Origin: a virus
Taxonomy: Duplodnaviria; Caudoviricetes
IMG/VR virus record: IMGVR_UViG_3300011335_000748
Location: 1-57,334 of that record
DNA length: 57,334 nucleotides
Direction: 5' to 3' (one strand)
Within the stretch, counting starts at the first letter, position 1, and each line of letters starts with the position of its first letter. Made by a program: the position numbers and the translations under genes. Of this stretch, positions 1 to 57,334 are shown one piece after another. The notes under the pieces are model-generated. The model was not told the origin of the DNA and made no database searches. It saw only the letters and a list, made by a program, of their open reading frames with translations.

Positions 1-127
1 CCAGTCTCAGCGCATCTTCCAAGACTATGCCAACAACTACAATCAGGCGCAAACGGCCTCGATGAATGCGTTTCAGAACCAACAGGCTCGGGCGCAGAAC
101 GTCGGCAACCTTGCACTGGGCGCAGGA
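1..127. repeat. Terminal direct repeat (identical to 57208-57334), assembly circularity overlap
   Basis: The first 127 nt match the last 127 nt exactly; the ORF starting at 56708 continues in frame across the junction to the stop at 493. Confidence 0.95.
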
Positions 128-493
128 CAACTGGCATCTGGCAGCGCAACTGGGATTGCCAACGTCGGGAAGCAGACAGCTGACCTTGGTCAACAGGCCT
201 CTGGCTTGGCACAGGGTGACACCTCGTTCCTGTACAACATTGGTAACCAGCAACAGGCTTACCAGCAGAAGGTGCTTGACGCTGCCCGCCAGACAGCGAT
301 CCAGCAGCAGTACGAGCCGTATCAGCGGATTTCGTTCCTCAGTGATATCTACAAGGGCGCACCTTCGTCGCAGCAGACGATCAGTCAGACCTCGGCTCCT
401 TCTCCATCGCTTGTTTCACAGGTCGGTGGTCTTGGTATTGCTGGTCTGTCCGCGTATAATCTCTTCGGTGGTAGCGGCTCTACACCTAAGTAA
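1..493 (+). CDS. 3' part of Gln/Ala/Gly-rich internal virion (ejection/pilot-like) protein, about 330 aa, starting at 56708
   Basis: In-frame continuation of the ATG at 56708 across the terminal overlap; Q/A/G-rich; C-terminal GGLGIAGL segment; position among ejection genes. Confidence 0.7.
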   Translation, partial: QSQRIFQDYANNYNQAQTASMNAFQNQQARAQNVGNLALGAGQLASGSATGIANVGKQTADLGQQASGLAQGDTSFLYNIGNQQQAYQQKVLDAARQTAIQQQYEPYQRISFLSDIYKGAPSSQQTISQTSAPSPSLVSQVGGLGIAGLSAYNLFGGSGSTPK

Positions 494-504
494 AGGTAAG
501 CACG

Positions 505-1758
505 ATGTATGATCCTGTTCTCAATCGCCCCATGTTCCAAGCCCAGAACACCGCCACTCCAATGGCGGCTGCTCCTATGGGGGCAAAGGGCACTGGCATC
601 ACATCGATGGTGACTTCACCAGACCCTGACACCACGATGCAGCAGCTCAAGGCTTTCGGTAGTCCGGTGGCTCCGACTATGGGTTATGCCGACGGCGGTC
701 CTGTGCAGAACTTTGCAGAGGGCGGTCTCTCCAGCATCTTCAGTCGTTTTGCTGATTCCTTGAAACAAGGCGGCGGTGAAGTACCCGATAACGCGATGGT
801 CGCGACTGACGAGGATGTCGCTAATCAGCAAGCGGCAACTGCCGAAAGAATGCGGCAGAACATGGTGCAAAACGCCAAGTCAGACGAACAAAAAAGAGCG
901 GAGCTTTATGAGATTACAAGGCGGGAGGAAGAGCGTCTTTCCGGGCCGGATGCTTATGGATCCTCGGAGGGGATTGTATCCATCCCCCGCTCGGATGCTC
1001 CTTCACGGCAACCCCCTACTCCTCCTCGTCCCCCCTCTGTTCGGGAGTTTCAAAACCCATACGGTGCTACTCCTCCTAGCGATAGCGAAGAGCGTCGATA
1101 CATTGAAGAACGTGCTATGCCTAAGGCTCCTCCCATGCCTCCAGAAGGTCGCCCGACGGAAGAGCGCAGCAGCATCTCGACGGAGCTTAACAAGATCCGG
1201 GAAGAACGTAAGGCTCAATCCGCAGCGGACCGCCGCGAGAATGCTTTGATGGCGTTGATGTCCGCTGGCTTCGGTATGGCTGCGGGCAAGAGCCGTCACG
1301 CCCTTACCAACATTGCGGAAGGTGGGCAGCAGGGCATTGCTACCTTTGCCAATCTGGAGAAGAGCCGTCGCGAGGACGATAACCGCCGCTATCTGGCTGA
1401 CCTTCATGAGCGCGAGCTGCGGATGAACGAGCCTTATAAGCAAGCGATGACTGAGCAAGCGCAAGCTCAGGCTGCATACCTGAAGACCCGCCCTGCATCA
1501 GAACAGCAGCGTCAGCAGCTTCGCGAAACAACGGCAATGTACAACGCTCGCAAAGAAGCTGCTAATGAGTTTATCCGCCGCAAGAAGGACGACTATACCT
1601 TTGGTCAGCAGTTCAATAATCCGGCTACTGGTGCAGCCATGGAAAAAGAGTGGCTGGCCCGCAGAACCCGTGAACTGATGCCGGAACACTTGGCCCGCGT
1701 GATGAACGATGCTAATAATGGTTCGCAAGGAAATGTAAGCCCAACCAACGCGGAGTGA
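505..1758 (+). CDS. Putative internal virion/ejection protein, 417 aa
   Basis: AAAGG RBS; N-terminal VLNRPMF, YADGG/FAEGG motifs, helical ALMSAGFGMAAG segment; lies between the pilot-like gene and the giant virion protein. Confidence 0.6.
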   Translation: MYDPVLNRPMFQAQNTATPMAAAPMGAKGTGITSMVTSPDPDTTMQQLKAFGSPVAPTMGYADGGPVQNFAEGGLSSIFSRFADSLKQGGGEVPDNAMVATDEDVANQQAATAERMRQNMVQNAKSDEQKRAELYEITRREEERLSGPDAYGSSEGIVSIPRSDAPSRQPPTPPRPPSVREFQNPYGATPPSDSEERRYIEERAMPKAPPMPPEGRPTEERSSISTELNKIREERKAQSAADRRENALMALMSAGFGMAAGKSRHALTNIAEGGQQGIATFANLEKSRREDDNRRYLADLHERELRMNEPYKQAMTEQAQAQAAYLKTRPASEQQRQQLRETTAMYNARKEAANEFIRRKKDDYTFGQQFNNPATGAAMEKEWLARRTRELMPEHLARVMNDANNGSQGNVSPTNAE

Positions 1759-1763
1759 TCTTT

Positions 1764-4700
1764 ATGGTTGACGAAACGCCAGCCCCTTTAACTCCGCTCC
1801 AGCAATACAAGTCGACCTTCACGGGGCTAGCCGATACCCCCGACGATCAGGTTATCGACTCTTTGTATGGCGAGTACGGCAAGGCTTCCGGTATGGACAA
1901 GCGAGACTTTGCTCTCGCTTGGCAGGGCCGTGGACCAAGGATGTCCCCCCTTCAGTCAGGTATTGCTGGGCTCAAAACCAGCTACCTTACTACCAAAGCC
2001 GGAGTAGCGCAGTCTCTTGGGGCAGATGAGTCTGCCCGCAACTACCTCAAAGAAGCAGAGACCATTGAGGCTGATACAAAGGCTCGATATCAGCCTGAGT
2101 TCCGGTCGTTCGATGACGTGCGCGGCCCAATCGATCTTGCAAAATACACCGCTGAAAAGTTTGGTGAGTCTGCCCCTCAAATGGCGGCACAAGCTGCGGG
2201 TGCATTGGCCTTGACGGCTGCGTCAGCAATAGCTCCGGTAGCAGCTCCCGTTGGTATTGGTGCTCGTGTCCTTTACACAGGACTAAGGGCACTTGCCGGT
2301 ACGACAACCCGAGCTGCTGTCACCGGAAGCACCGCAGTTGGTCTGCCTCTTTACACGGGGGCCAATCTTCAGCGTCAGATGGACGAAGGTGCAAAGTTTG
2401 AGGACGTAAGCTTAGGTCGCGCAACAGCTGCGGCAGCTCTTCAGTCAACACTGGATTCGATATCTCTTGCCACTGTGTTTAAGGGCCTTCCCGGAAGCAT
2501 GCTTCAAAAAGGTGGCATCTTCCGGCAAGCGGTCATTCGTGGTGTCGAATCAGGGGCAACCGAATCCCTTACGGAAACGGCACAGCAAGCCCTTGAAATC
2601 ATGCAAGCCAATCCTCAGAAGCTGTTTGAGTTTGGAGCAGACGTTCAGAAGGAACTGAAGGAAGCGGCTATTGCTGGCGCGATCCTCGGCGGCGCAATGG
2701 GTGGTGTGGCTGGCGGGGTTCAAAAAGGATTTGAACGCAAGCCGAAGCCCGTTGATGATACCACAACCCAGCAGGGTGGCGATAATACGGGCGGCGGCGG
2801 TGACACGACTACCGACACAAGCGGTGGTGCACTTCCTCCCCCTACTCCGGGATATGCTCCTCGGACCTTTGGTTCTGAGGGTCTGACAGAACCCTCCATC
2901 CAGCGGGCAGATCCTCGGACAGGCAAACCTGTGGTTGAGGTTGGCCTTACTCAACCCGTGGAACAGGTTGTTCCGGGTAATATTACAACGGAGGCCCAAG
3001 ACCTTATCCGCTTGGTGGACCAAGGGAACATGCAGCTCACCCCTGCAATAACCCCGGAACTTCAGAGGATTCTTCAGGAGAATGGGATTGCTGTCGAGGC
3101 AAGTGACACCTCCGATACGGCCCTCGAAAAATTGCGGGCTAAGGCTACCGTAGCTCCTATTATTAAGGACAAGGTCGGAGTTCATTTCACCAATGACTTT
3201 GATCGTGCGCTCTTCTATGCCAACTCCCCAAACATTGATGAGGCAACTCGGCAAGAGTACGAGGACTTCCTGACCCATCAGGGCCTCGACAAAACCCAGA
3301 TTCTTGAACTTGGGTTGCGGCTTGAGGACAAGATCCAAGAGGAAGCTAAGACTCACTTTCAGTTAGGCAACGAAGGTCCTCTGACCTTGGACTTCTCCCG
3401 CAGGGAAGCCGCTGAGATCTACAACAACCTTCCACAGGTCGCCGACACGTGGAAGAAGTTGCAGGAGCAGGGTTACTCTGCCGAGCAGATCAATGAGGAG
3501 ATGTCCGGTGAGGCGGCATACACTAACGCCACTCGCGGGAATGTGTCTGATGCAGTGCAAAAAGACACCGGGATCTTCTATTACGACAGGTCTCCCCCTA
3601 GAACTAATGACCCAAATGCGGTTGCGGCAGTTCCGGACAAAACTTTCAAGCGCAAGTTGGAAAGCAAATTTCCCGGTCTCACCTCCATCATGGAGAACAT
3701 TGCTCAACGTCTGTTCCCCGGGACAGATATCCATTTCTTCAATGAAAAGGATCCAAATAACTTTGGTTCCTTTGCCGGTATCTGGCGTTACAAGGTGGAC
3801 CCAAGTGCCCGCCGTCCCGGAGCCATGGGCATTGCTATCAACCTTCACGATATCTTGAAGGGGGCATACTCCAAAGGGAAGCAGCCTTCCCCACGTCAGA
3901 TAGCCAATCTTGTCCATACTATCCTGCATGAACTTAGCCATCCTGCTGTTGATTCGGTCCTTACCCGACTGAATGCCGCTGATATGGAAGCGGTCATGCA
4001 ACAGTATGCTTCGGAACGTAACAGCATAGCTATTAAAAGAGAGGCCGCTGCTCGAACTATCAACCAGCATACTTTTGATCTTAAACAAAAGGGTCCTGTA
4101 ACCGAGCAAGAGCTGGCTGACCTCAAGGACAGGGTTGCCAAAAGATTTGGGGTGTCTGTTTCTTCCATAGAAAAGTTTATCGCTGACCCTAGTGTCAACG
4201 AGCTGGGTGCTTTCTGGCATAAGGACAGCCAAGAGCTAACCTACCGCAGGGACTTTCAGGAGTGGGCTGCTGAAAAAGGCATGCGCTGGATGCTCCAAGA
4301 AATCCCGGGCCGTATGCCTGAGACCGTCTTGGACAAATTTGCAGCCGCCGTTCTTAAAGCTTTGCGTCAGGTTTATGAAACCATCGAAGCTGCATTTGGT
4401 ATCCCGTACACCCCCGGCGCGTTTGAAAAAGCGATGGCGGATACGTGGGGAGCTCATGATCGTACCAACGTCAACAAACAGTTGGCGGAGAAGATGATCT
4501 TGGATCCGCGTAATAACGCTACGGGTGGACCGTGGGCTAACGGCCCCTTTGGTCCAAGGCCCTACTATTCCTCCGCTGAACTTCAGGTTGGGCCAGACGA
4601 ATATTCTCGTTCAACATCTCAATTCGGTGCACTTGCGGGTGAGGATCAAGCCAAGTACAGCTCCCCAATCGAGGACCTTCCCAAAGAACCGAGGGAGAAA

Positions 4701-7385
4701 AGGGAACAGGTTAAGGCTGACAAGACCCAAACTGCCCCTGAGAACACACAGCTTCAGCCCACTGGGAACGTAGAAACCATTGTCCGTAAACTTCGCCCTG
4801 AGGTGGAGCAAAAGGAAACGGGGATCAAGGCTTTCTTCAAGGGCATTCGTGACCTGTTGAAAGGCAACAGCTGGCGCGGAATGGCGGACTTCATTACAGA
4901 GAAGTTAGCCGACAACATGATCAAGGTCCTGCGCCTTGATGAGCGGTACGCTGCCGAGATGAAGAAGCAGGGTCGCCCCTTGGAAGCAGGGTACGACCAA
5001 CGCTATCCCGCAACCGCTCGCCTCTCGGCGTATGCGGCAGCACTTGCACGTGACAACTCCCTTGCTATGGTCGAAACAATCCTGCACCACGGTGGCAGCA
5101 TTGAGTACGTCAAGACGGGGAACGAGGCTACCGATGGGTACATCCGTGTAAACCGCAACGGTAACAAGGGCCTCACCTTCCTTGGTGATCTGATCCGTGC
5201 TGGGAAACTGGAACGCTGGCGCGACTATGCCATGGCAAAGCGCATCGCGGGCCTGACCGAGCGCGGGCTGAAAACCCCTATCACTGTTGCTGAGGCGAAC
5301 GTCATCCTTCGTGAGTACGGTCAGGATGCTGACATCGTCAAAGCTTACGAGAGTTTTCAGAAGCACAACAACAGCATGATCAAGCTGGCAGTGGACACCG
5401 GAGTGATCACCAAAGAAGCTGGTGCGATGTTTGTGAAGAACAACGACTACTACCCATTCTATCGTGAGATGGAAGAGGGCAAAGGTTTCTCGGGCCCAAT
5501 CTTCACGGCTGGTCTGATCTCCCCCACCAAGATTGCCAAGGCAATGGGCGGCACGGAGCACCTGAAGAATGACCCCGTCGAAGTGATCTTGAAGAACACC
5601 CACTTCTGGGCAAATGCTGCCGCAAAGAACGTCGCATCCAACAAGATGTATACGATGATGAAGTTCTTGGGCGAGGCTTCGGATCTTCCTGCTAAGGGCG
5701 GGGTGGTCAAGCCGGGCGAGATCGAAGGCACGACACGCATCAAGGGCAAAGAGCAGAGGTTCGTTATCAAAACTCCTGATCTTGCGGCGGCAATGGAGTC
5801 TATGGGCGCAAGCCCGATGCCAAACTGGACCAAGATCCCCGGAGCTTTCACGAGTTTCTATCGTGAACTTGTGACCCGTGATCCTACGTACATCTTTAAG
5901 AACCTAATGCGCGATCCGTTCTCGGCAATGGTTACCAGTGGCGTGAACTTCAATCCGTTTAAGGCCTTCTCAAACTTTGCGCGGGCTTTAAAGAACCCTG
6001 ACTCTATGGAGTCTTTGCTTGCTTTGCAGAACTTCGGCATCTTGGGCGGGTACAAGTCCCTCCCAAACATGGAGAACGCATCAAAACTTCTTGGTAAGGG
6101 GTTCGATCCAGCCTCCATCCAGCAAGGCAGCGTCTTTGTTGTGCCGGATGCTAATACCTTAACTGGTATAATCTCCAAGTCTTGGAACGCCCTTGGTCGT
6201 ATGTCCGAGGCTTCTGATGCTGCAACCCGTACGGCTATCTACGAAGAGGTCTTGGCAAAGACAGGCAATGAGGCCGAGGCTGCTTTCCGTGCACAGGAAG
6301 TGATGAACTTCCGCAAGCACGGCACAAACCAAGCCATCCGCATTCTGAGCATGATGGTCCCCTTCGTTAACGGTCGCATCCAAGGTATCAGTGTGGCGGC
6401 TCAGGCTTTCGCTGATGGCAACCGCATGCACACCTTGGTCAAAGGCGGGATGTTGTTCGGCGCGGCGATGGCTCTTCAGGGTCTGACCGCAGATGACAAG
6501 GACTATTTGCAGCTACCAGACTATGTTCGTCAGGGGTCCTTGGTAGTTCCGCTGAAAGTCTTGGGCATTTCTGACAAGGGATTCCTTGCCATACCAAAGC
6601 CATTTGAAATGGGCTTCATCTTCCAGACCATTCCGGAGCTGATGATCCAAGCCTATGGCACGGACAGCAAGGAAGACCGTGCGGTCAAGACCGTCATTGC
6701 AAACTACTTGGGGCAGACCTTTGGGATCAGTCCTTTCCCCTCTATCATTGCACCAATCGCTGAAGTGTACTTCAACCGCTCCAGCATGACGGGCTTGCCT
6801 ATCATCACCCAATCAATGGAGCATCTGCCTCCGGAGTTGCAGTACACTGCGGCAACATCCGACATAATAAAGAACCTCGGACAGGCGACGGGTATCTCCC
6901 CTGCAAAGTTGGAGACCATCGTTAAAGGGTACGGCGGTCAGGTCATCACCACCATGTTGACCATGCTTGATGGTATGTACCGTGCGTCAACTGGTAAGGG
7001 CGTGGAAAAGGATTTCACCCAGTATCAACCTGTCTCCACGTTCATCAAAACCGAGAAGAACACCAATCCGCAGGGAGTTGCTGACATCTATCGGCTGTCC
7101 GCTGAAATCCAAGGGCTGACCACTGGCCTTAATAACTACATCAGCTACGGCATGATCAAGGAAGCGGATAACTTGGTGAAAGAAAATCAGGGCTTGTTCG
7201 CTCTGAAACAAACTATCGGAAACTTACGTAACCAGTTGAACACCCTCAGCCGTCAGGAGCGTATCGTCATGAACAACGATGCGATCCCGCAGGAAGACCG
7301 CACACGGATGGTTGATAGTTTACGCGAGGCCCGCCGCCAGATATCCTCGGCCATGCCGGACCTCATCAAACAAACAGGAAAGTAA
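1764..7385 (+). CDS. Large polyvalent/ejection protein (about 1873 aa) with zincin-like HExxH motif and C-terminal LPD38-like domain
   Basis: GGAG RBS before ATG 1764; ILHELSH motif with downstream FQEWAAE; C-terminal IPKPFEMG..FQTIPE..PIAEVYFN..TGLPI pattern recalled from LPD38. Confidence 0.75.
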   Translation: MVDETPAPLTPLQQYKSTFTGLADTPDDQVIDSLYGEYGKASGMDKRDFALAWQGRGPRMSPLQSGIAGLKTSYLTTKAGVAQSLGADESARNYLKEAETIEADTKARYQPEFRSFDDVRGPIDLAKYTAEKFGESAPQMAAQAAGALALTAASAIAPVAAPVGIGARVLYTGLRALAGTTTRAAVTGSTAVGLPLYTGANLQRQMDEGAKFEDVSLGRATAAAALQSTLDSISLATVFKGLPGSMLQKGGIFRQAVIRGVESGATESLTETAQQALEIMQANPQKLFEFGADVQKELKEAAIAGAILGGAMGGVAGGVQKGFERKPKPVDDTTTQQGGDNTGGGGDTTTDTSGGALPPPTPGYAPRTFGSEGLTEPSIQRADPRTGKPVVEVGLTQPVEQVVPGNITTEAQDLIRLVDQGNMQLTPAITPELQRILQENGIAVEASDTSDTALEKLRAKATVAPIIKDKVGVHFTNDFDRALFYANSPNIDEATRQEYEDFLTHQGLDKTQILELGLRLEDKIQEEAKTHFQLGNEGPLTLDFSRREAAEIYNNLPQVADTWKKLQEQGYSAEQINEEMSGEAAYTNATRGNVSDAVQKDTGIFYYDRSPPRTNDPNAVAAVPDKTFKRKLESKFPGLTSIMENIAQRLFPGTDIHFFNEKDPNNFGSFAGIWRYKVDPSARRPGAMGIAINLHDILKGAYSKGKQPSPRQIANLVHTILHELSHPAVDSVLTRLNAADMEAVMQQYASERNSIAIKREAAARTINQHTFDLKQKGPVTEQELADLKDRVAKRFGVSVSSIEKFIADPSVNELGAFWHKDSQELTYRRDFQEWAAEKGMRWMLQEIPGRMPETVLDKFAAAVLKALRQVYETIEAAFGIPYTPGAFEKAMADTWGAHDRTNVNKQLAEKMILDPRNNATGGPWANGPFGPRPYYSSAELQVGPDEYSRSTSQFGALAGEDQAKYSSPIEDLPKEPREKREQVKADKTQTAPENTQLQPTGNVETIVRKLRPEVEQKETGIKAFFKGIRDLLKGNSWRGMADFITEKLADNMIKVLRLDERYAAEMKKQGRPLEAGYDQRYPATARLSAYAAALARDNSLAMVETILHHGGSIEYVKTGNEATDGYIRVNRNGNKGLTFLGDLIRAGKLERWRDYAMAKRIAGLTERGLKTPITVAEANVILREYGQDADIVKAYESFQKHNNSMIKLAVDTGVITKEAGAMFVKNNDYYPFYREMEEGKGFSGPIFTAGLISPTKIAKAMGGTEHLKNDPVEVILKNTHFWANAAAKNVASNKMYTMMKFLGEASDLPAKGGVVKPGEIEGTTRIKGKEQRFVIKTPDLAAAMESMGASPMPNWTKIPGAFTSFYRELVTRDPTYIFKNLMRDPFSAMVTSGVNFNPFKAFSNFARALKNPDSMESLLALQNFGILGGYKSLPNMENASKLLGKGFDPASIQQGSVFVVPDANTLTGIISKSWNALGRMSEASDAATRTAIYEEVLAKTGNEAEAAFRAQEVMNFRKHGTNQAIRILSMMVPFVNGRIQGISVAAQAFADGNRMHTLVKGGMLFGAAMALQGLTADDKDYLQLPDYVRQGSLVVPLKVLGISDKGFLAIPKPFEMGFIFQTIPELMIQAYGTDSKEDRAVKTVIANYLGQTFGISPFPSIIAPIAEVYFNRSSMTGLPIITQSMEHLPPELQYTAATSDIIKNLGQATGISPAKLETIVKGYGGQVITTMLTMLDGMYRASTGKGVEKDFTQYQPVSTFIKTEKNTNPQGVADIYRLSAEIQGLTTGLNNYISYGMIKEADNLVKENQGLFALKQTIGNLRNQLNTLSRQERIVMNNDAIPQEDRTRMVDSLREARRQISSAMPDLIKQTGK

Positions 7386-47725: not shown

Positions 47726-49108
47726 ATGGCTAGTACTTATTCAACCAATCTCGGCATCGAACTCATGGGGACTGGCGATCAGTCCGGTACTTGGGGTACG
47801 ACCACCAACACCAACCTCGGGACGCTGCTGGAACAGGCCATTGCTGGTTACGCCACTCAGGCGGTAACCGATTCTTCTTCCGCGACAGTCTTGACGATCA
47901 CCAACGGTGCAGCTTCCACAGGCCGCAACCCCGTCATCGTCCTGACAGGCGTATTGACTGCGGATCGTGTTGTTGAAGTTCCCGCCAAGACCAAACTGTA
48001 TGTCTTTAAGAACTCCACCACGGGTGGTTTCAACGTCACCGTAAAAGTAACGGGTCAGACGGGCGTGACGATTGCCAACGGCAAGACCGCCTACATGTTC
48101 TGCAATGCGACCGATACGGTTGAAATCTTTAACGCTCCGGTAACGGAAGCTGGGACGCAGACGCTCACCAACAAGACGCTGACATCTCCAACCGTCAATA
48201 CCGCCACTATCTCCGGCGGTACGATCAATAACGCCGTTATTGGTGGAACGACCGCTGCGGCTGGGACATTCACCACAATTGGCGGTACGACGATCACTGC
48301 CAGTACCCAGTTCTCCGGTCCACACAACGGAACCGTTGGTGCGACGACCCCCTCTACGGGTTCGTTTACTACCTTGGCAGCTTCCAGCACCGTATCTGGT
48401 ACAGGGTTTAGCACCTACCTTGCTTCCCCTCCTGCGATTGGCGGCACCACTCCGGCTGCGGGTGCTTTTACTACAGTCACTGCAACTACTGGGGCAGCTA
48501 CCGCTGCAACCTTTACATCTGCCAGCGTTGGCACGGGCGGAACTATTGCCGTTAATGATACAGGAACAAACGGCTCTATCATTAAAATGACAGGCAATGG
48601 CGCAACGACCCCTACCAAATTCTTAAACGTACTGAGCGGTGTACTCCGCATCCTTAATAATGCGTATTCTGCCGTTCTTATGACGCTTGATGATTCCGGG
48701 AATTTGGTTGCCACTGGTAACGTCACTGCATACTCCGATGAGCGGGTCAAGACCAACTGGCGTAGTATGGAACCCGGATTCCTGAAGCAGCTTTCCGAGA
48801 TCAAGGCTGGAACTTACGACCGTACCGATACCGACGCTCCCATGGTTCAGGTCGGTGTGTCCGCGCAGGACTTGCAGAAGATTCTTGGTCCTGCGGTCTT
48901 GGAAGATGCTGACGGTATGCTGTCCGTGGCTTACGGCAACGCGGCCCTTGTAGCTGCCGTCGAACTGTGCAAAGAAGTTCAGCGGCTTCACACCGAGATC
49001 GAAGCCTTAAAGGCCCAGTTCCACGAGGAGATTGGGTCTATCAAGGTGGAGTTTGCCGACGAGATCACAGCACTGAAAGCACGTCCTGTTTGCAAGTGCG
49101 CTTCATAA
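47726..49108 (+). CDS. Tail fibre with C-terminal intramolecular chaperone (Peptidase S74-like)
   Basis: MASTYS..G...GTWG..TN.N start; IGGTT.AAG.FTT repeats; AYSDERVKTN..GVSAQ..L.V.Y plus coiled coil. Confidence 0.85.
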   Translation: MASTYSTNLGIELMGTGDQSGTWGTTTNTNLGTLLEQAIAGYATQAVTDSSSATVLTITNGAASTGRNPVIVLTGVLTADRVVEVPAKTKLYVFKNSTTGGFNVTVKVTGQTGVTIANGKTAYMFCNATDTVEIFNAPVTEAGTQTLTNKTLTSPTVNTATISGGTINNAVIGGTTAAAGTFTTIGGTTITASTQFSGPHNGTVGATTPSTGSFTTLAASSTVSGTGFSTYLASPPAIGGTTPAAGAFTTVTATTGAATAATFTSASVGTGGTIAVNDTGTNGSIIKMTGNGATTPTKFLNVLSGVLRILNNAYSAVLMTLDDSGNLVATGNVTAYSDERVKTNWRSMEPGFLKQLSEIKAGTYDRTDTDAPMVQVGVSAQDLQKILGPAVLEDADGMLSVAYGNAALVAAVELCKEVQRLHTEIEALKAQFHEEIGSIKVEFADEITALKARPVCKCAS

Positions 49109-49120
49109 GGAGCCTATAGA

Positions 49121-50077
49121 ATGACGCTTCCCGCCTCTGGCACAATTGCTATGTCCAACTTCAACACCGAGCTGGGGGTGGCATCGACCACCAATAGGTC
49201 GATGTCCTCTATCTACTCACTAACTAAAACTGGGCAGCAGTCGTATGCGTTCAATGCCTATTACAGCAAGGCATACTACCAGAGCACCACTGGCGGAAAT
49301 TGCAACAACGGAAACTGTAACTTCCCCAATAATTGTACCTACCAGTGTACTAATTGTTCAACTGGTGCAGCAATCAATTGCACTAATTGCGATACTCAGT
49401 CCTACATTCAAACCAACTGTAACTGCGCTTGTACCTATAATTGTGCTGCCGTAACAAACATGTTGTACGATTGCGCTTGCGCTTGCTCTACTGACTCTAC
49501 CACCTGTTTTTTAGCTGGATCACCCGTTTTTATGGCAGATGGTTCGTTGCGGCGTATTGAGGATGTTAAGATAGGAGAATATGTAAAAGGCGCATACGGA
49601 GAAGCCAACAAGGTACTTGCGTATGACCGTCCACTTTTAGGCAATCGTCTTATGTTTGTTATTAATGGAGAACACCGGACAACAGACGAGCATTCCCACA
49701 TGAGGGCAGACCGTTCTTTCGGTCCCATAAGTTTAAGGGCGTGGCAATCCGATACCGGAACCACTCACCCCGTTATAGTTGATGAGTGTGGGACAGTTGA
49801 ACAGTGGTTACTCCCCGGTGTGGAAGACATGTCTACAATCAGCCAACTTCAAGTTGGAGAAGAGTTATGGACAACACACGGTTCCAAAAAACTTGAAACA
49901 ATCACCAGTGAAAAATTGCCTACAGAAACGCAGCTTTATAACTTGGTGCTTGATGGCAGTCATACTTACTTTGTTGATGGCTACTGCGTAACCGGGTTTA
50001 TAAACGGTTACGATTTTGACCATAAAAGCTGGTCTCCCTTGGGGGAAAAGTGGCTTCCCAACAACTACCGCAAATAG
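49121..50077 (+). CDS. Cys/Asn-rich tail-tip-like protein fused to a Hint (intein-like) domain
   Basis: MTLPASGTI..S.FNTELG start; 14 Cys in residues 61-122; CFLAGSPV.MADG..RIEDV..G (block A), TxxH (block B), YNL..DG.HTYFVDG (block F). Confidence 0.82.
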   Translation: MTLPASGTIAMSNFNTELGVASTTNRSMSSIYSLTKTGQQSYAFNAYYSKAYYQSTTGGNCNNGNCNFPNNCTYQCTNCSTGAAINCTNCDTQSYIQTNCNCACTYNCAAVTNMLYDCACACSTDSTTCFLAGSPVFMADGSLRRIEDVKIGEYVKGAYGEANKVLAYDRPLLGNRLMFVINGEHRTTDEHSHMRADRSFGPISLRAWQSDTGTTHPVIVDECGTVEQWLLPGVEDMSTISQLQVGEELWTTHGSKKLETITSEKLPTETQLYNLVLDGSHTYFVDGYCVTGFINGYDFDHKSWSPLGEKWLPNNYRK

Positions 50078-50112: not shown

Positions 50113-50820
50113 ATGACCTCAATCATTGTCTATCGGGAGTTTACTCTTCCCTACACCTTCTCTGCGGAAGTCAGCATTTTAGCGGAAAGCGTAACAATCA
50201 CTACTACTACGAAGCATGTGCTTCAGAGTGAGCGTACTTTAACAACCACTATTCTTTGGAGCGAGTTGCAAGCGCGTGATGACAAGTGCGGCTTTGACCG
50301 CTGGATTGTTCCGCTAGATTCATACGGCAACCAATATCAAATTCGTAATTTGCATGTTGAAACATACGCTTCGCAACTGCCTCCTACCGAACAGGCTGGT
50401 TTGACGGGAAGCAGCAACTTGTTCCACATCATCACCCGCCCCACAGATACGTCTTTCTTGGACAGTTGCTACTATCTCAACATACCAGACGGGGGGACGT
50501 ACACCTGTAACCTTCCTGTCGAAGAACTCCCCCGCACTATTTCGACGGGTAGGAAATATTATTGGCCCGCGATGGAACTGGTTGAAATATCCAGAACATC
50601 TGATAAGGTCACTTGTGAGGTTCGGATGGATGCATCCGTATCTGACCAAGTGATATATTTAGAAACCGACTTGGGCTATGTTACGAAAGAAGTTACCGTC
50701 CAGAATGGTACGGCACAGTTCTCTTTTGTCCCCGTTGAGATGAACGACGGTGACACCGCTACTGTGAAAGCTGGATTCAAGTACTTCTCTAATGTGGCTT
50801 CGGTCCCCATTGTGAGGTGA
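50113..50820 (+). CDS. Hypothetical protein with beta-rich (Ig-like) C-terminus
   Basis: AAGGA RBS; YLET..GY...V....G...F..GD...VKAGFKYF. Confidence 0.6.
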   Translation: MTSIIVYREFTLPYTFSAEVSILAESVTITTTTKHVLQSERTLTTTILWSELQARDDKCGFDRWIVPLDSYGNQYQIRNLHVETYASQLPPTEQAGLTGSSNLFHIITRPTDTSFLDSCYYLNIPDGGTYTCNLPVEELPRTISTGRKYYWPAMELVEISRTSDKVTCEVRMDASVSDQVIYLETDLGYVTKEVTVQNGTAQFSFVPVEMNDGDTATVKAGFKYFSNVASVPIVR

Positions 50821-50825
50821 TCAAT

Positions 50826-51530
50826 ATGTCGAGTTACGACACGAATCCAACCATGTCAAATCTTTGGCCTACAAAGATAATGAAAGGTTCGATTATAAAG
50901 CCTGATTCGTGGCATGAAGAACTGGCAGAACTTGCCCGTGATTATGTTGAAAATAGAATGGTAAAATATGACAGCGGCTTCAAACACGCTGTACCTAACA
51001 ATCTTCTCCTTCATTATAAGTCCACGGCTTTAACTGAATACTTTGAGATTCTGCAAGACTATTTTTGGACCTATATGATGGGTGTTGCCGATATTGGTCC
51101 TTCAGATATTACGAAGCCAAATTGTCATATGTTTGGTAACGTTGAGAAAAGGGGCGAGTGGAGTATCCCACATGCCCATCACGGAAACCAATGCGTTATA
51201 ACTTTTTATCCCAAAGTCACCAGAGACCCCCAAGAGCCACATCCGTATGCTGGTTCTATGGTTTTTCACAACCCACGGTTTATGCAGTCAGGTTTTTGGG
51301 CAAGACGTGAAAAACTGTTTACCCCTTTTAAGGTTGAAACAGGAACTATTGTAGCGTTTCCGGGAATTGCCGAGCATTCGACGTTTCCATTCTTCAACGA
51401 AGGCTCAGAGAAAACGGCCCTTGTTTGCAATATCCGGTTTACGGGTACACTGGAAGGTGAGGGTTCAATGGACCAATACCAGACCTTTGAAGCCCTCAAT
51501 GAACACAGAGAAAAACTCTGCAACTCGTAA
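50826..51530 (+). CDS. Putative 2OG-Fe(II) oxygenase
   Basis: L(W)PT N-terminus, PHAH HxH, FHNPR, G.IVAFP...HS..P, ALVCN double-stranded beta-helix pattern. Confidence 0.75.
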   Translation: MSSYDTNPTMSNLWPTKIMKGSIIKPDSWHEELAELARDYVENRMVKYDSGFKHAVPNNLLLHYKSTALTEYFEILQDYFWTYMMGVADIGPSDITKPNCHMFGNVEKRGEWSIPHAHHGNQCVITFYPKVTRDPQEPHPYAGSMVFHNPRFMQSGFWARREKLFTPFKVETGTIVAFPGIAEHSTFPFFNEGSEKTALVCNIRFTGTLEGEGSMDQYQTFEALNEHREKLCNS

Positions 51531-51539
51531 GGAGTTAAC

Positions 51540-52979
51540 ATGCTTTTCAATATTCACGCTGAAAGAAATGGCGGCGCAGATAAAATCGTGCTGACCTACG
51601 ACAATGTGACCAATGAGCTGCGGGCTCAGGATGGGTTCCTCATTGAGAACCCATCGCTGCTACGTAAAAAATGGGAAGACGCAACTATCTTCTCTAAAGA
51701 ACACCCCTTGGTGAAGTCAAAGCTGGTTAAGATCCTCAAGATCCAGTTCGGTCTTTCCTGCAACTATAGCTGTTCCTATTGCTCTCAACGGTTTGTTGAA
51801 CGTGCAGATGAGACGAATAAGAAAGACATTGAAGGTTTTATGCGTAAGCTGGAAAACCTAGAGTTTAACGAGCAAGATGGGTTGAAGGTTGAGTTTTGGG
51901 GCGGGGAACCGCTTGTCTACATTAAGACGATAAAGCCTTTGCTTGAGGAGTTGCAGAAAAAATTCTCCTCTTGGGAAAAAAAGCCGCACTACAGCATGAT
52001 CACCAATGGGTCCTTGTTGACTGACGAGCTCTGCGACTGGCTGTTCAAAAACCACTTTAGTGTTGCCATCAGTCACGATGGTCCCGGTCAGCATGTACGT
52101 GGCCCGGACCCGTTTGATGATCCCGTGGTAAAAGATGTGATCCTGCGGTTCTATCGTCGGATGCGCCCCCTTAACCGCATCAGCTTCAACTCAATGCTGA
52201 ACAGCTCCAATAGGAGCCGCAAGGAAATCTTTGAGTGGTTTGTCAATCTTACCGGAGATCCCGGAGTCCTTCTTGGTGAGGGTGGGTTGATTGATGCATA
52301 CGATACTGACGGTCTTGCAAATGCTCTGACCACCAAGCAAGAACATTTTGAGTTTCGGCAAACTGCTTTTAAGGACATAGCCACAACGGGTGGGGCGATA
52401 GGTTTTACGGGCATCCTCGATAAGGTTGATGCTTTTACCAACGCCATTTTGTCTCACAAACCATCGAGGTCTCTTGGGCAGAAGTGCGGGATGGACGATG
52501 ACAACATCCTTGCTGTTGACCTAAAGGGCAACGTGATTACCTGTCAGAACGTAAGTGCTGTTTCTACCGCAGGAAACGGTATGCCCCACCTTGGAGGCAA
52601 CATTGTCAACATGGACTCGGTCAAGATCAGGACAGCTACCCACTGGAGCAATCGCCCCGACTGCGCCAACTGCCCCGTTCTGCATATCTGTCAGGGGTCT
52701 TGCATGTACCTTCAGGAAGAGTACTGGGATAAGTCATGCGACAACGCCTACTCCGATGCAGTTGCCATCTTTGCCCTGTCACTGGAAAAGATCACGGGGT
52801 ACATCCCCTATTTGATTGAAGCTGACCATCTTCCACCGGAGAGACAGGACATCTGGGGATGGACACTTGAACATGCTGAAGACGAGAAGAAGGATCTTGT
52901 GTCCCTTCGCCCTGTCATTCAGAAGAAAATGGTGGTAGAAGATGTTGAGGTCTACACACAAGCTGTCGTAGGGGAATGA
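51540..52979 (+). CDS. Radical SAM/SPASM domain protein
   Basis: CNYSCSYC, FWGGEP, ITNGSLL, ISHDG, KCG..VDL.G.V..C, CANCPVLHICQGSC..C. Confidence 0.92.
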   Translation: MLFNIHAERNGGADKIVLTYDNVTNELRAQDGFLIENPSLLRKKWEDATIFSKEHPLVKSKLVKILKIQFGLSCNYSCSYCSQRFVERADETNKKDIEGFMRKLENLEFNEQDGLKVEFWGGEPLVYIKTIKPLLEELQKKFSSWEKKPHYSMITNGSLLTDELCDWLFKNHFSVAISHDGPGQHVRGPDPFDDPVVKDVILRFYRRMRPLNRISFNSMLNSSNRSRKEIFEWFVNLTGDPGVLLGEGGLIDAYDTDGLANALTTKQEHFEFRQTAFKDIATTGGAIGFTGILDKVDAFTNAILSHKPSRSLGQKCGMDDDNILAVDLKGNVITCQNVSAVSTAGNGMPHLGGNIVNMDSVKIRTATHWSNRPDCANCPVLHICQGSCMYLQEEYWDKSCDNAYSDAVAIFALSLEKITGYIPYLIEADHLPPERQDIWGWTLEHAEDEKKDLVSLRPVIQKKMVVEDVEVYTQAVVGE

Positions 52980-56707: not shown

Positions 56708-57334
56708 ATGGCTGAGGTAACAACCCAAGAGTATATCACTAAGGAATCGCCCCAGATCGAAGCCTATAAGCTCGGTCTATTGGACGTTGCCAAGAAGGTA
56801 TCCGAAACCCCCATCAACCTTCCGGCAATGCAAGTTGCTGGAATGTCTCCGCAGCAGCAAGATGCCCTCAAGATGGCCTCTCAAGGTATCGGCATCTATC
56901 AGCCCTACCTGAATACGGCTGGGCAAAACTACGCCGACGCTACTGCTGGGTTCAAGTCTCTTCCTCAGTATGGTCAGGCTGCTGTTGACTACGGTGTTGC
57001 GGGGGCGCAAGCCTATGATCCCAATGCCGTTAAGGGGTACATGAACCCTTACCAAGAGCAAGTCACCCAGAATGCTATGAAGGAAATGCAGCGTCAGGCT
57101 GCGGTCCAACAGCAGGGTCTCAATGCTCAGGCGGTTAAGTCAGGTGCGTTTGGTGGGAGCCGTCAGGGCGTCCAGCAGACCGAGCTTGGTCGCAACCTGT
57201 ATGACATCCAGTCTCAGCGCATCTTCCAAGACTATGCCAACAACTACAATCAGGCGCAAACGGCCTCGATGAATGCGTTTCAGAACCAACAGGCTCGGGC
57301 GCAGAACGTCGGCAACCTTGCACTGGGCGCAGGA
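56708..57334 (+). CDS. 5' part of Gln-rich internal virion protein (continues at 128-493)
   Basis: ATG at 56708, open to the window end; YMNPYQEQV and GAFGGSR motifs. Confidence 0.7.
   Translation, partial: MAEVTTQEYITKESPQIEAYKLGLLDVAKKVSETPINLPAMQVAGMSPQQQDALKMASQGIGIYQPYLNTAGQNYADATAGFKSLPQYGQAAVDYGVAGAQAYDPNAVKGYMNPYQEQVTQNAMKEMQRQAAVQQQGLNAQAVKSGAFGGSRQGVQQTELGRNLYDIQSQRIFQDYANNYNQAQTASMNAFQNQQARAQNVGNLALGAG
57208..57334. repeat. Terminal direct repeat (copy of 1-127)
   Basis: Exact match to the window start. Confidence 0.95.

Follow-up and report, generated by a model that had tools for sequence, protein, structure and literature searches.

Peptidase_S74, an autoprotease of the Ser-Lys type that doubles as a trimerisation chaperone, closes fibre-like proteins as a C-terminal module that removes itself. 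Unrelated to it in fold and chemistry are the Hint domains of inteins and Hedgehog proteins, for which the available accounts describe that a cysteine at position 1, together with the threonine and histidine of block B, suffices for an N-to-S acyl shift (PMC7765530, PMC8616854). As outlined in one of these sources, the Hint domain of Hedgehog forms a thioester that is then resolved, and the B-type BIL domains, which possess all the intein splicing motifs save the C-terminal one, cleave at their N-end (PMC7765530). The subject of the present analysis is a 318-residue protein encoded by IMG/VR virus record IMGVR_UViG_3300011335_000748, positions 1 to 57,334, a stretch of Caudoviricetes DNA of 57,334 nucleotides that is referred to in its entirety as the window. 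The last 190 residues hold a HINT-type domain and a conserved tail, and comparison of sequences, models and gene arrangements suggests that this terminal module probably cleaves at its own N-end and thereby releases residues 1-128. Its working principle is closest to that of the Hedgehog/Hog C-terminal domain and the B-type BILs, its role closest to that of Peptidase_S74. If the predicted cleavage takes place, phages possess a second self-removing end module for fibres besides Peptidase_S74, and protein engineering would gain a compact Hint domain that cleaves at its N-end and is naturally dead for splicing.

The protein has four parts, a 55-residue N-domain, a 73-residue Cys/Asn-rich core, the Hint domain from Cys129 to Gly292 and a 26-residue tail. 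Their layout is as follows, with model confidence given as the predicted local distance difference test score (pLDDT) of the AlphaFold 2 (AF2) model.

49121..50077, plus strand: whole gene, 318 residues and stop codon; homologues P0001-P0011 at 47-68% identity and 97-100% coverage
49121..49285, plus strand: N-domain, residues 1-55 (MTLPASGTIAMSNFNTELG...), a module conserved at the N-terminus of small phage proteins; pLDDT 82-91
49286..49504, plus strand: Cys/Asn/Thr-rich core, residues 56-128 (14 Cys, 14 Asn, 13 Thr), ending ...YDCACACSTDSTT
49502..49507, plus strand: predicted scissile bond Thr128/Cys129 (ACC TGT), Cys129 being aligned to intein residue 1
49505..49996, plus strand: Hint (HINT-fold) domain, residues 129-292, from Pfam, AF2, Foldseek and VIA-align
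49682..49693, plus strand: block B T188-D-E-H191 (TxxH), conserved in the family alignment
49991..49996, plus strand: Thr291-Gly292 in place of the intein His-Asn; the structural alignments end at residue 292
49997..50074, plus strand: 26-residue tail FINGYDFDHKSWSPLGEKWLPNNYRK; pLDDT 92-96
50012-50032, plus strand: conserved tail core F293...D298-F-D300-H-x-x-W304

Fold and register of the Hint domain

In the AF2 model, built on 83 sequences and with a pLDDT of 92-99 across residues 129-318, the C-terminal region is of the HINT superfamily fold and displays the horseshoe beta fold, the cysteine nucleophile and the block B TxxH of that superfamily. Foldseek returned 49 matches in the PDB at E ≤ 1e-3, those listed being inteins, BIL domains, Hedgehog or Vint; BIL2 (6y75, E 6e-9) and the C. 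thermocellum BIL domain (2lwy) lead the ranking, with inteins and Hedgehog (1at0) behind them. In VIA-align the Z score over residues 129-292 lies at 13-20 for some 50 entries of the BIL, intein and Hedgehog kinds and reaches 20.1 for BIL2 6y75. At the sequence level residues 129-183 score above the threshold of Pfam Hom_end_hint (E 3.5e-8). These matches far exceed what chance would give. NCBIfam yields only a sub-threshold intein-related match for the protein and PHROGs no family. By tblastn the window holds no further Hint domain.

VIA-align sets residues 129 to 292 of the model against the first and last residues of inteins (1..440 of Mtu RecA, 1..454 of PI-SceI), and HMMER places Cys129 opposite Cys1 of PI-SceI. 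Since the last intein residue falls on model residue 292, Gly292 occupies the position of the terminal asparagine and Thr291 that of the penultimate histidine; the +1 position is Phe293, and residues 293-318 form an extra element outside the Hint fold. The junction reads ...STDSTT/CFLAGSPVFMADG in block A, the block B stretch RTTDEHSH, and the block F/G pattern QLYNLVLDGSHTYFVDGYCVTG, whose last residues are V290-T291-G292. A preliminary description of this DNA had placed the start of a Hint domain at Cys129, directly after the Cys-rich core, with TxxH kept and VTG where His-Asn is expected. These observations are confirmed: the coordinates are exact, Cys129 is intein residue 1 in the structural alignments, and the structural logic that it drew from Cys1 and TxxH without His-Asn, that of a domain which can cleave at its N-end but cannot splice, holds. 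Its statement that block F is kept is borne out for the overall pattern and not for the position at which an aspartate is typical of inteins, where, to judge by the motif pattern, the residue that follows the nearly invariant Tyr273 is Asn274, variable in the family.

Comparison with described Hint domains

The likeness to Hedgehog/Hog lies in the C-terminal placement of the Hint domain, in Cys1 and TxxH, in the lack of a terminal asparagine and of a C-extein, and in a short extra element at the C-terminus (VIA-align Z 15.7-15.9 against 1at0 and 6tyy). It would extend to a cleavage confined to the N-end that frees an N-terminal cargo, as the Hedgehog mechanism is described in PMC7765530. On the other side, Pfam Hint (PF01079) matches at E 0.049 and 13.6 bits against a cut-off of 29.7, the 12-residue core of the tail does not discernibly resemble the sterol-recognition region, viruses are the hosts and no adduct is known. 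The Hedgehog/Hog cleavage site is Gly-Cys-Phe, whereas the site here is Thr-Cys-Phe, and glycine stands at -1 in only 14 of 197 family members.

BIL domains are the best structural matches (Z 20.1 for BIL2 6y75, Z 17.7 for C. thermocellum 2lwy), and the module shares with them a location in variable, non-conserved proteins as opposed to conserved enzyme sites; it differs in being strictly terminal and in bearing a DFDxxxW tail. A-type BILs and BIL2 end in His-Asn (the A-type according to the account in PMC7765530), whereas the module ends in Thr-Gly, and assignment to the A-type was rejected on that ground. The B-type fits in its general description as given in PMC7765530, a comparison made at the level of that description, and Pfam Hint_2 stays below its cut-off (E 0.22).

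With class 1 mini-inteins the module has in common the fold, Cys1, the block B TxxH and the overall strand pattern of blocks F and G. It differs from them in having neither His-Asn nor a Cys, Ser or Thr at +1 (F293) nor a C-extein, and in not being inserted in a host protein. A canonical class 1 intein was therefore rejected, given T291-G292 at the His-Asn site, Phe293 at +1 and only 26 residues to follow. PT-HINT (PF07591) is comparable in that a Hint domain works there as the peptidase of release, within proteins that are filamentous or built of repeats and of which some bear tail-fibre repeats, as portrayed in PMC3482391. Its Pfam profile matches residues 241-288 weakly (E 0.0026; 18.4 bits, the cut-off being 27.7); however, PT-HINT precedes and frees a C-terminal toxin domain, whereas here only the 26-residue tail follows, and the assignment was rejected because the score is under the cut-off and no domain comes after the Hint.

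Conservation and distribution of the family

A search with the 190-residue Hint and tail against 1.84 billion cluster representatives yielded at least 1,508 matching proteins (E ≤ 1e-3), of which 565 remain when the limit is set at 1e-10 and 118 when it is set at 1e-30. Conservation was assessed in an alignment of 289 domain copies from 251 proteins plus the query, at 26-72% identity. Every one of the 255 aligned copies that reach the N-end has Cys1; T or S fills position 188 in 256 of 266 copies, and H fills position 191 in 249 of 267. The first-step residues (Cys1, the block B T/S and His191) are, on this comparative evidence, under selection. Positions 291-292 are TG in 147 of 223 aligned copies and VG, SG, AG, SA and similar in others, with HN-like ends in 13 of the 223, all of them internal or tandem copies devoid of a tail; no aligned tail-bearing family member has HN.

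Position counts were made on the 204 copies that have Cys1 and extend to position 291. As many as 192 end no more than 30 residues from the end of the protein, and the 12 exceptions comprise seven HN-type internal copies and five tail-bearing copies with 31-49 extra residues. D298 and D300 occur together in 158 copies, all but two of which also have W304 (156 of 158). The remainder of the tail (xxxW..NNYRK) is kept only in the phage subfamily; the forms from giant-virus metagenome-assembled genomes (MAGs) stop soon after W304. Because of the TG ends, the tail and the position counts, the family state is read as terminal, without His-Asn and with a DFDxxxW tail, and VTG as something other than one-off decay. 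The preliminary description had considered that TG might be a one-off degeneration and proposed an alignment of homologues; that alignment tells against degeneration, as close homologues lack His-Asn and TG and the tail are the conserved state.

The module ends proteins of very different make-up. Among those in IMG/VR are 1,918-residue fibre-like, collagen-like (G-x-x repeats; L028, L032), Thr/Pro-rich (L013) and Gly-rich (L014) proteins, and many carriers of 290-410 residues come from contigs, of up to 421 kb, that bear a giant-virus MAG label. The best BFVD match, from a phage, goes under the name 'Collagen triple helix repeat'. The Hint and tail of P0012 are 67% identical to those of the window, yet sit on an unrelated N-part, and some proteins with the window's N-part bear a more distant tail subtype; the Hint and tail thus appear to have been shuffled as a module between genes. 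Two carriers come from cultured phages. Achromobacter phage JWF gp28 is a tail-fibre-like protein of 483 residues (...NCNCDCNCNCSC/FPAG...), and Providencia phage PSTNGR1 gp46, which has the same N-domain without the Cys-rich core, is encoded right after a tail fibre that ends in Peptidase_S74.

Tandem arrays, in which an HN-type copy with a +1 Cys directly precedes the terminal TG-type copy, occur in P0018, P0124 and P0126, in the 1,918-residue proteins of L001, L002 and L004 and in a 5'-truncated copy on L003. The array of L001 lies in an open reading frame (ORF) at 1300-7068 of that locus, with the junction ...VVHN/C-G-x-S. Repetition goes further in P0121 (4,119 residues), P0122 and P0123, which have up to eight matched stretches, some of them HN-type repeats that end ...LVHNKGG. 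As regards the giant viruses, some of the loci with a GVMAG label or a length above 100 kb (L005-L012, L016-L020, L023-L025, L027, L029) encode a terminal Hint with GYAVTGWPREDDFDYDxW, and many giant-virus-MAG carriers have a common N-terminal region of their own, MSN.D.SA..R......TLA.......NP....

Database labels for the relatives go no further than 'Hint domain containing protein'. The literature search found no description of the terminal Hint family or its tail, with the proviso that the annotation tables of the original JWF genome paper may bear on this, and the JWF-related papers contain no mention of the Hint protein or the radical S-adenosylmethionine (radical SAM) gene discussed below. 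Literature matches for phiCbK and CBB were set aside as ordinary inteins. What emerges is a large Hint family for which no characterisation was found in the literature, strictly terminal, with Thr-Gly in place of His-Asn and a conserved tail of its own.

The N-fragment and its alternative ends

The part upstream of the predicted cut is 128 residues long and contains 14 cysteines; the computed masses are 13,632 Da for its hydrolysis product, before any radical SAM change, 21.4 kDa for the Hint and tail and 35.1 kDa for the uncut protein. In the N-domain M1 and P4 are invariant, and L3, S6, G7, I9, E17, G19 and Y48 are kept at 90% or more (alignment A3). Its look-alikes in the Atlas are N-termini of phage proteins with Laminin_G_3, Gly_rich_2, GP38 or Lcl_C, which at template modelling scores (TM) ≤ 0.51 serve as leads only. 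The core has a set of invariant residues in the same alignment (N60, C61, C79, N89, C90, Q97, C100, N101, C102, N107 and C118) and no confident fold (pLDDT < 50), including when the N-fragment was folded alone with 61 relatives (pLDDT 62 overall, core < 50). The resulting model had no match at Z ≥ 2 in a VIA-align comparison with 48,161 chains, and an Atlas feature search gave no usable match.

When residues 1-128 alone served as the query, 112 proteins of 70-224 residues were retrieved, 110 of them new, and 87 of these 110 are 115-150 residues long. All 60 of the 87 whose ends were inspected stop within, or a few residues past, the terminal Cys-rich run. P0261, for instance, ends ...NCNCACSTDSSS (...NCACSTDSSS, then the stop), to be set against ...CACACSTDSTT/C in the window; a further end, ...ACW, is shared by 13 of the 87 forms of stand-alone size. 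Other relatives have Peptidase_S74 at the same junction (P0100, P0111 and 12 further forms), the S-D-x-x-L-K motif coming directly after the Cys/Asn core, as in ...CACAW-SDDMLK, ...CACAC-SDVTLK and ...CACFW-SDDTLK. S74 domains cut just before the serine of this motif.

Proteins with no end module, with an S74 end and with a Hint end, three architectures in all, thus seem to converge on an N-domain and core with a free C-terminus, and this convergence is the strongest evidence that the job of the Hint is to come off at Thr128/Cys129. The stand-alone and S74-ended sister proteins amount to natural controls for the cut site. For the same reason the release of a 128-residue protein, as proposed in the preliminary description, has gained strong comparative support from relatives that stop or join at this very point; the chemistry of the release is one that we infer.

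A fourth architecture was seen in L036, in L038-L044 and in 28 of the 80 core-encoding loci, where the core is followed by an end module of about 165 residues that terminates in a hydrophobic helix and has the pattern ...CSKIICAKLYE.G.M...ADQ.YG...HMAYLMG...GRPIC.... An end of similar type is found on a large fibre-like protein of 1,723 residues in L035.

Predicted mechanism and rival explanations

The following course of events is proposed. The last 190 residues would act as a terminal cleavage-only module, made of the HINT fold (129-292) and the family-specific tail (293-318), in which Cys129, aided by Thr188 and His191, performs an N-to-S acyl shift at the Thr128-Cys129 bond. Splicing and C-terminal cleavage should be impossible because terminal asparagine, +1 nucleophile and C-extein are all lacking. 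Water or a small cellular thiol would resolve the thioester, to give a 13.6-kDa N-fragment with a free C-terminus and a 21.4-kDa by-product of Hint and tail. The module would thus be a removable end piece in the part played by self-cleaving Peptidase_S74 in the sister proteins and in the neighbouring tail fibre, exchanged among phage fibre-like genes by recombination. The functional product would be the released small protein, encoded beside a tail fibre gene and probably associated with the virion or its fibres, and its Cys/Asn-rich core would probably be modified by the linked radical SAM enzyme.

Several points weigh against this account, which we nonetheless consider the probable one. The search found no biochemical or proteomic record of cleavage for any family member, and the argument is wholly comparative. 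Position -1 is not constant in the family (of 197 members 58 have P, 45 S, 37 T, 18 C and 14 G), and in inteins a proline or a beta-branched side chain there can retard the acyl shift. The block F position at which inteins have aspartate appears to be Asn274, a mapping drawn from the motif pattern. The conserved and confidently modelled tail (D298, D300, W304) would not be needed for simple hydrolysis, which hints at a function for it, and the benefit of a module that is merely removed is hard to see when most relatives do without it.

In the rival that survives best, rather unlikely as we judge it, the module cleaves itself by the same chemistry and is of no use to the phage, a selfish or neutral 'terminal intein' that persists because its self-removal makes it harmless and that spreads as fibre genes recombine at their 3' ends; this rival differs from the favoured account only on why the module is present. 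Among the 80 core-encoding loci a Hint end is found in one or two and the stand-alone form in 40, unrelated N-parts carry the module at higher identity than some related ones, the tandem HN/TG arrays resemble a proliferation of mobile Hint units, and BIL domains are tied to protein variability and genetic rearrangement in the account of PMC7765530. However, there is no homing endonuclease in or beside the Hint domain, and at least 1,508 cluster representatives from phages and giant-virus-MAG contigs show good conservation of tail and fold, which suggests selection beyond tolerance. Rarity and tandem arrays lean towards a passenger, wide conservation towards a module that may help in folding or assembly.

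In a second rival, distinctly improbable, a chosen nucleophile would attack the Cys129 thioester as in Hedgehog or BUBL, leaving the end of the fragment covalently attached to a lysine of a virion or host protein, to a lipid or sugar hydroxyl, or to an internal residue in a cyclic product, and the DFDxxxW tail would bind, recruit or activate that nucleophile. BIL2 of the Tetrahymena BUBL locus, the best structural match (Z 20.1), is described as joining its N-extein to lysines by an isopeptide bond (PMC8616854), and Hedgehog as esterifying cholesterol with its Hint domain and C-terminal extension (PMC7765530). The tail itself, with two nearly invariant aspartates and a tryptophan in 156-158 of 204 copies and a pLDDT of 92-96, is more than a spacer needs. 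Yet the majority of N-fragment relatives either stand alone or end in S74, and neither form can make a C-terminal thioester, and the function of the fragment therefore cannot depend on ligation. Moreover, the 12-residue tail core is far shorter than the sterol-recognition region of Hedgehog and has no similarity to it, no acceptor candidate was found, and the presence of the module on very different N-parts runs contrary to a cargo-specific acceptor. The preliminary description had offered ligation to a nucleophile selected by the tail as its second possibility; nothing in the present analysis favours it and the stand-alone and S74 forms render it less necessary, although the conjugation described for BIL2 (PMC8616854) keeps it in play, and the interpretation put forward there is on the whole partly supported. 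Were ligation to occur, the thioester would weld a fragment modified by radical SAM chemistry onto a lysine of a virion protein or onto a molecule of the host envelope, and phages and giant viruses would possess an ATP-independent chemistry of covalent attachment for fibre building.

That the Hint never cleaves, and is instead a permanent distal domain such as a binding knob at the tip of a short fibre, with structural Cys, Thr and His, is very improbable: cleavage has never been observed, Hint and tail are the best-folded part of the protein and the gene is situated among tail fibre genes, whose C-terminal domains are often receptor binders, but the first-step intein residues are invariant at the exact catalytic positions, the stand-alone relatives have no such domain and the S74 relatives remove theirs, and a domain that ends quite different proteins, giant-virus-MAG ones included, is ill-suited to be a host-specific receptor binder.

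The linked radical SAM gene

Returning to the favoured account, in which residues 1-128 are set free, the candidate partner of the released fragment is encoded nearby.

51540..52979, plus strand: radical SAM enzyme resembling SPASM-type peptide maturases; Pfam Radical_SAM and Fer4_12, above cut-offs

Its best NCBIfam matches are of the QhpD, PapB, CcpM, SCIFF and anSME types, at E 1e-9 to 3e-24 and far below the family cut-offs. Of the 80 IMG/VR loci with a gene for a relative of residues 1-128, 79 have a radical SAM homologue in the flank, mostly less than 50 nucleotides away, and the one locus without it has a flank of only 156 nucleotides on one side. The link is present in Achromobacter phage JWF, whose gp30 is 45% identical. 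None of the 28 Hint loci in which Cys1 can be located and is preceded by fewer than four cysteines among 30 residues carries a radical SAM gene, and no linked one was found in PSTNGR1, the phage with a Hint protein that lacks the Cys-rich core. A tie between radical SAM and the Hint itself was rejected, as the enzyme accompanies the Cys-rich core whatever the end module.

Because core gene and radical SAM gene are linked in 79 of 80 loci, the released Cys/Asn-rich fragment is probably a substrate of the enzyme, and the pair looks like a phage precursor and maturase system; no description of such a pair was found in the literature. It is a very tightly linked phage gene pair, of a small Cys/Asn-rich protein and a radical SAM maturase-like enzyme, beside tail fibre genes. 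The pair (L049-L126, L041 and L042; 49121-49504 and 51540-52979 in the window) often adjoins tail fibre genes elsewhere too. In Ralstonia phage RSP15 (L048, 2431-6341) a 'side tail fiber (fragment)' that ends ...NTNCQCGN is followed by a relative of the 235-residue ORF described below, by another ORF and by a radical SAM gene 45% identical to that of the window; the cassette therefore exists without N-domain or Hint.

Gene call and genome setting

The ATG of the gene at 49121-50077 is preceded by AGGAG 9 nucleotides 5' of it; the Cys129 codon is 49505-49507 (ACC/TGT for T128/C129) and the stop codon 50075-50077. The gene call stored for the contig (P0006, 181 residues; 49532-50077) begins at Met138, inside the Hint, and omits the N-domain, the core and Cys1. 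The 318-residue ORF is nevertheless judged a real gene, because homologues (P0001-P0005 and others) span 100% of its length. P0046, P0092 and several IMG/VR ORFs seem 5'-truncated in the manner of P0006, and automated annotation therefore conceals the architecture of the Hint proteins.

The ends of the contig repeat, the first 30 nucleotides recurring at 57208 (1-127 against 57208-57334), and on that account the assembly behind the window was probably circular and the phage genome, of about 57.2 kb, complete. The large terminase shares 61% identity with its counterpart in Pelagibacter phage HTVC027P, a similarity that places the phage in the HTVC027P/HTVC023P-like group. The gene for the Hint protein lies in the structural region, directly 3' of a tail fibre gene with an S74 end, and is followed by the 235-residue ORF, a 2-oxoglutarate (2OG)-Fe(II) oxygenase-like gene, the radical SAM gene and a gene for a virion structural protein.

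47726..49108, plus strand: upstream tail fibre gene with C-terminal Peptidase_S74 (residues 337-391, ...NVTAYSDERVKTNW...)
50113..50820, plus strand: ORF of 235 residues (ORF235), which accompanies the cassette in some phages
50817..51530, plus strand: 2OG-Fe(II) oxygenase-like gene, flanked by ORF235 on one side and the radical SAM gene on the other; phrog_81, E 1.2e-15

Homologues of the tail fibre gene precede the Hint-protein gene in L026 and L037 as well. ORF235 has no Pfam or PHROG match above threshold; a homologue of 33% identity stands 3' of the radical SAM gene in L026, and its C-end is 42% identical to ORF047 of Ralstonia phage RSP15. The oxygenase-like gene was not found in the related loci. 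In the non-structural half of the genome, a very large ORF of 1,876 residues occupies positions 1755-7385 of the plus strand.

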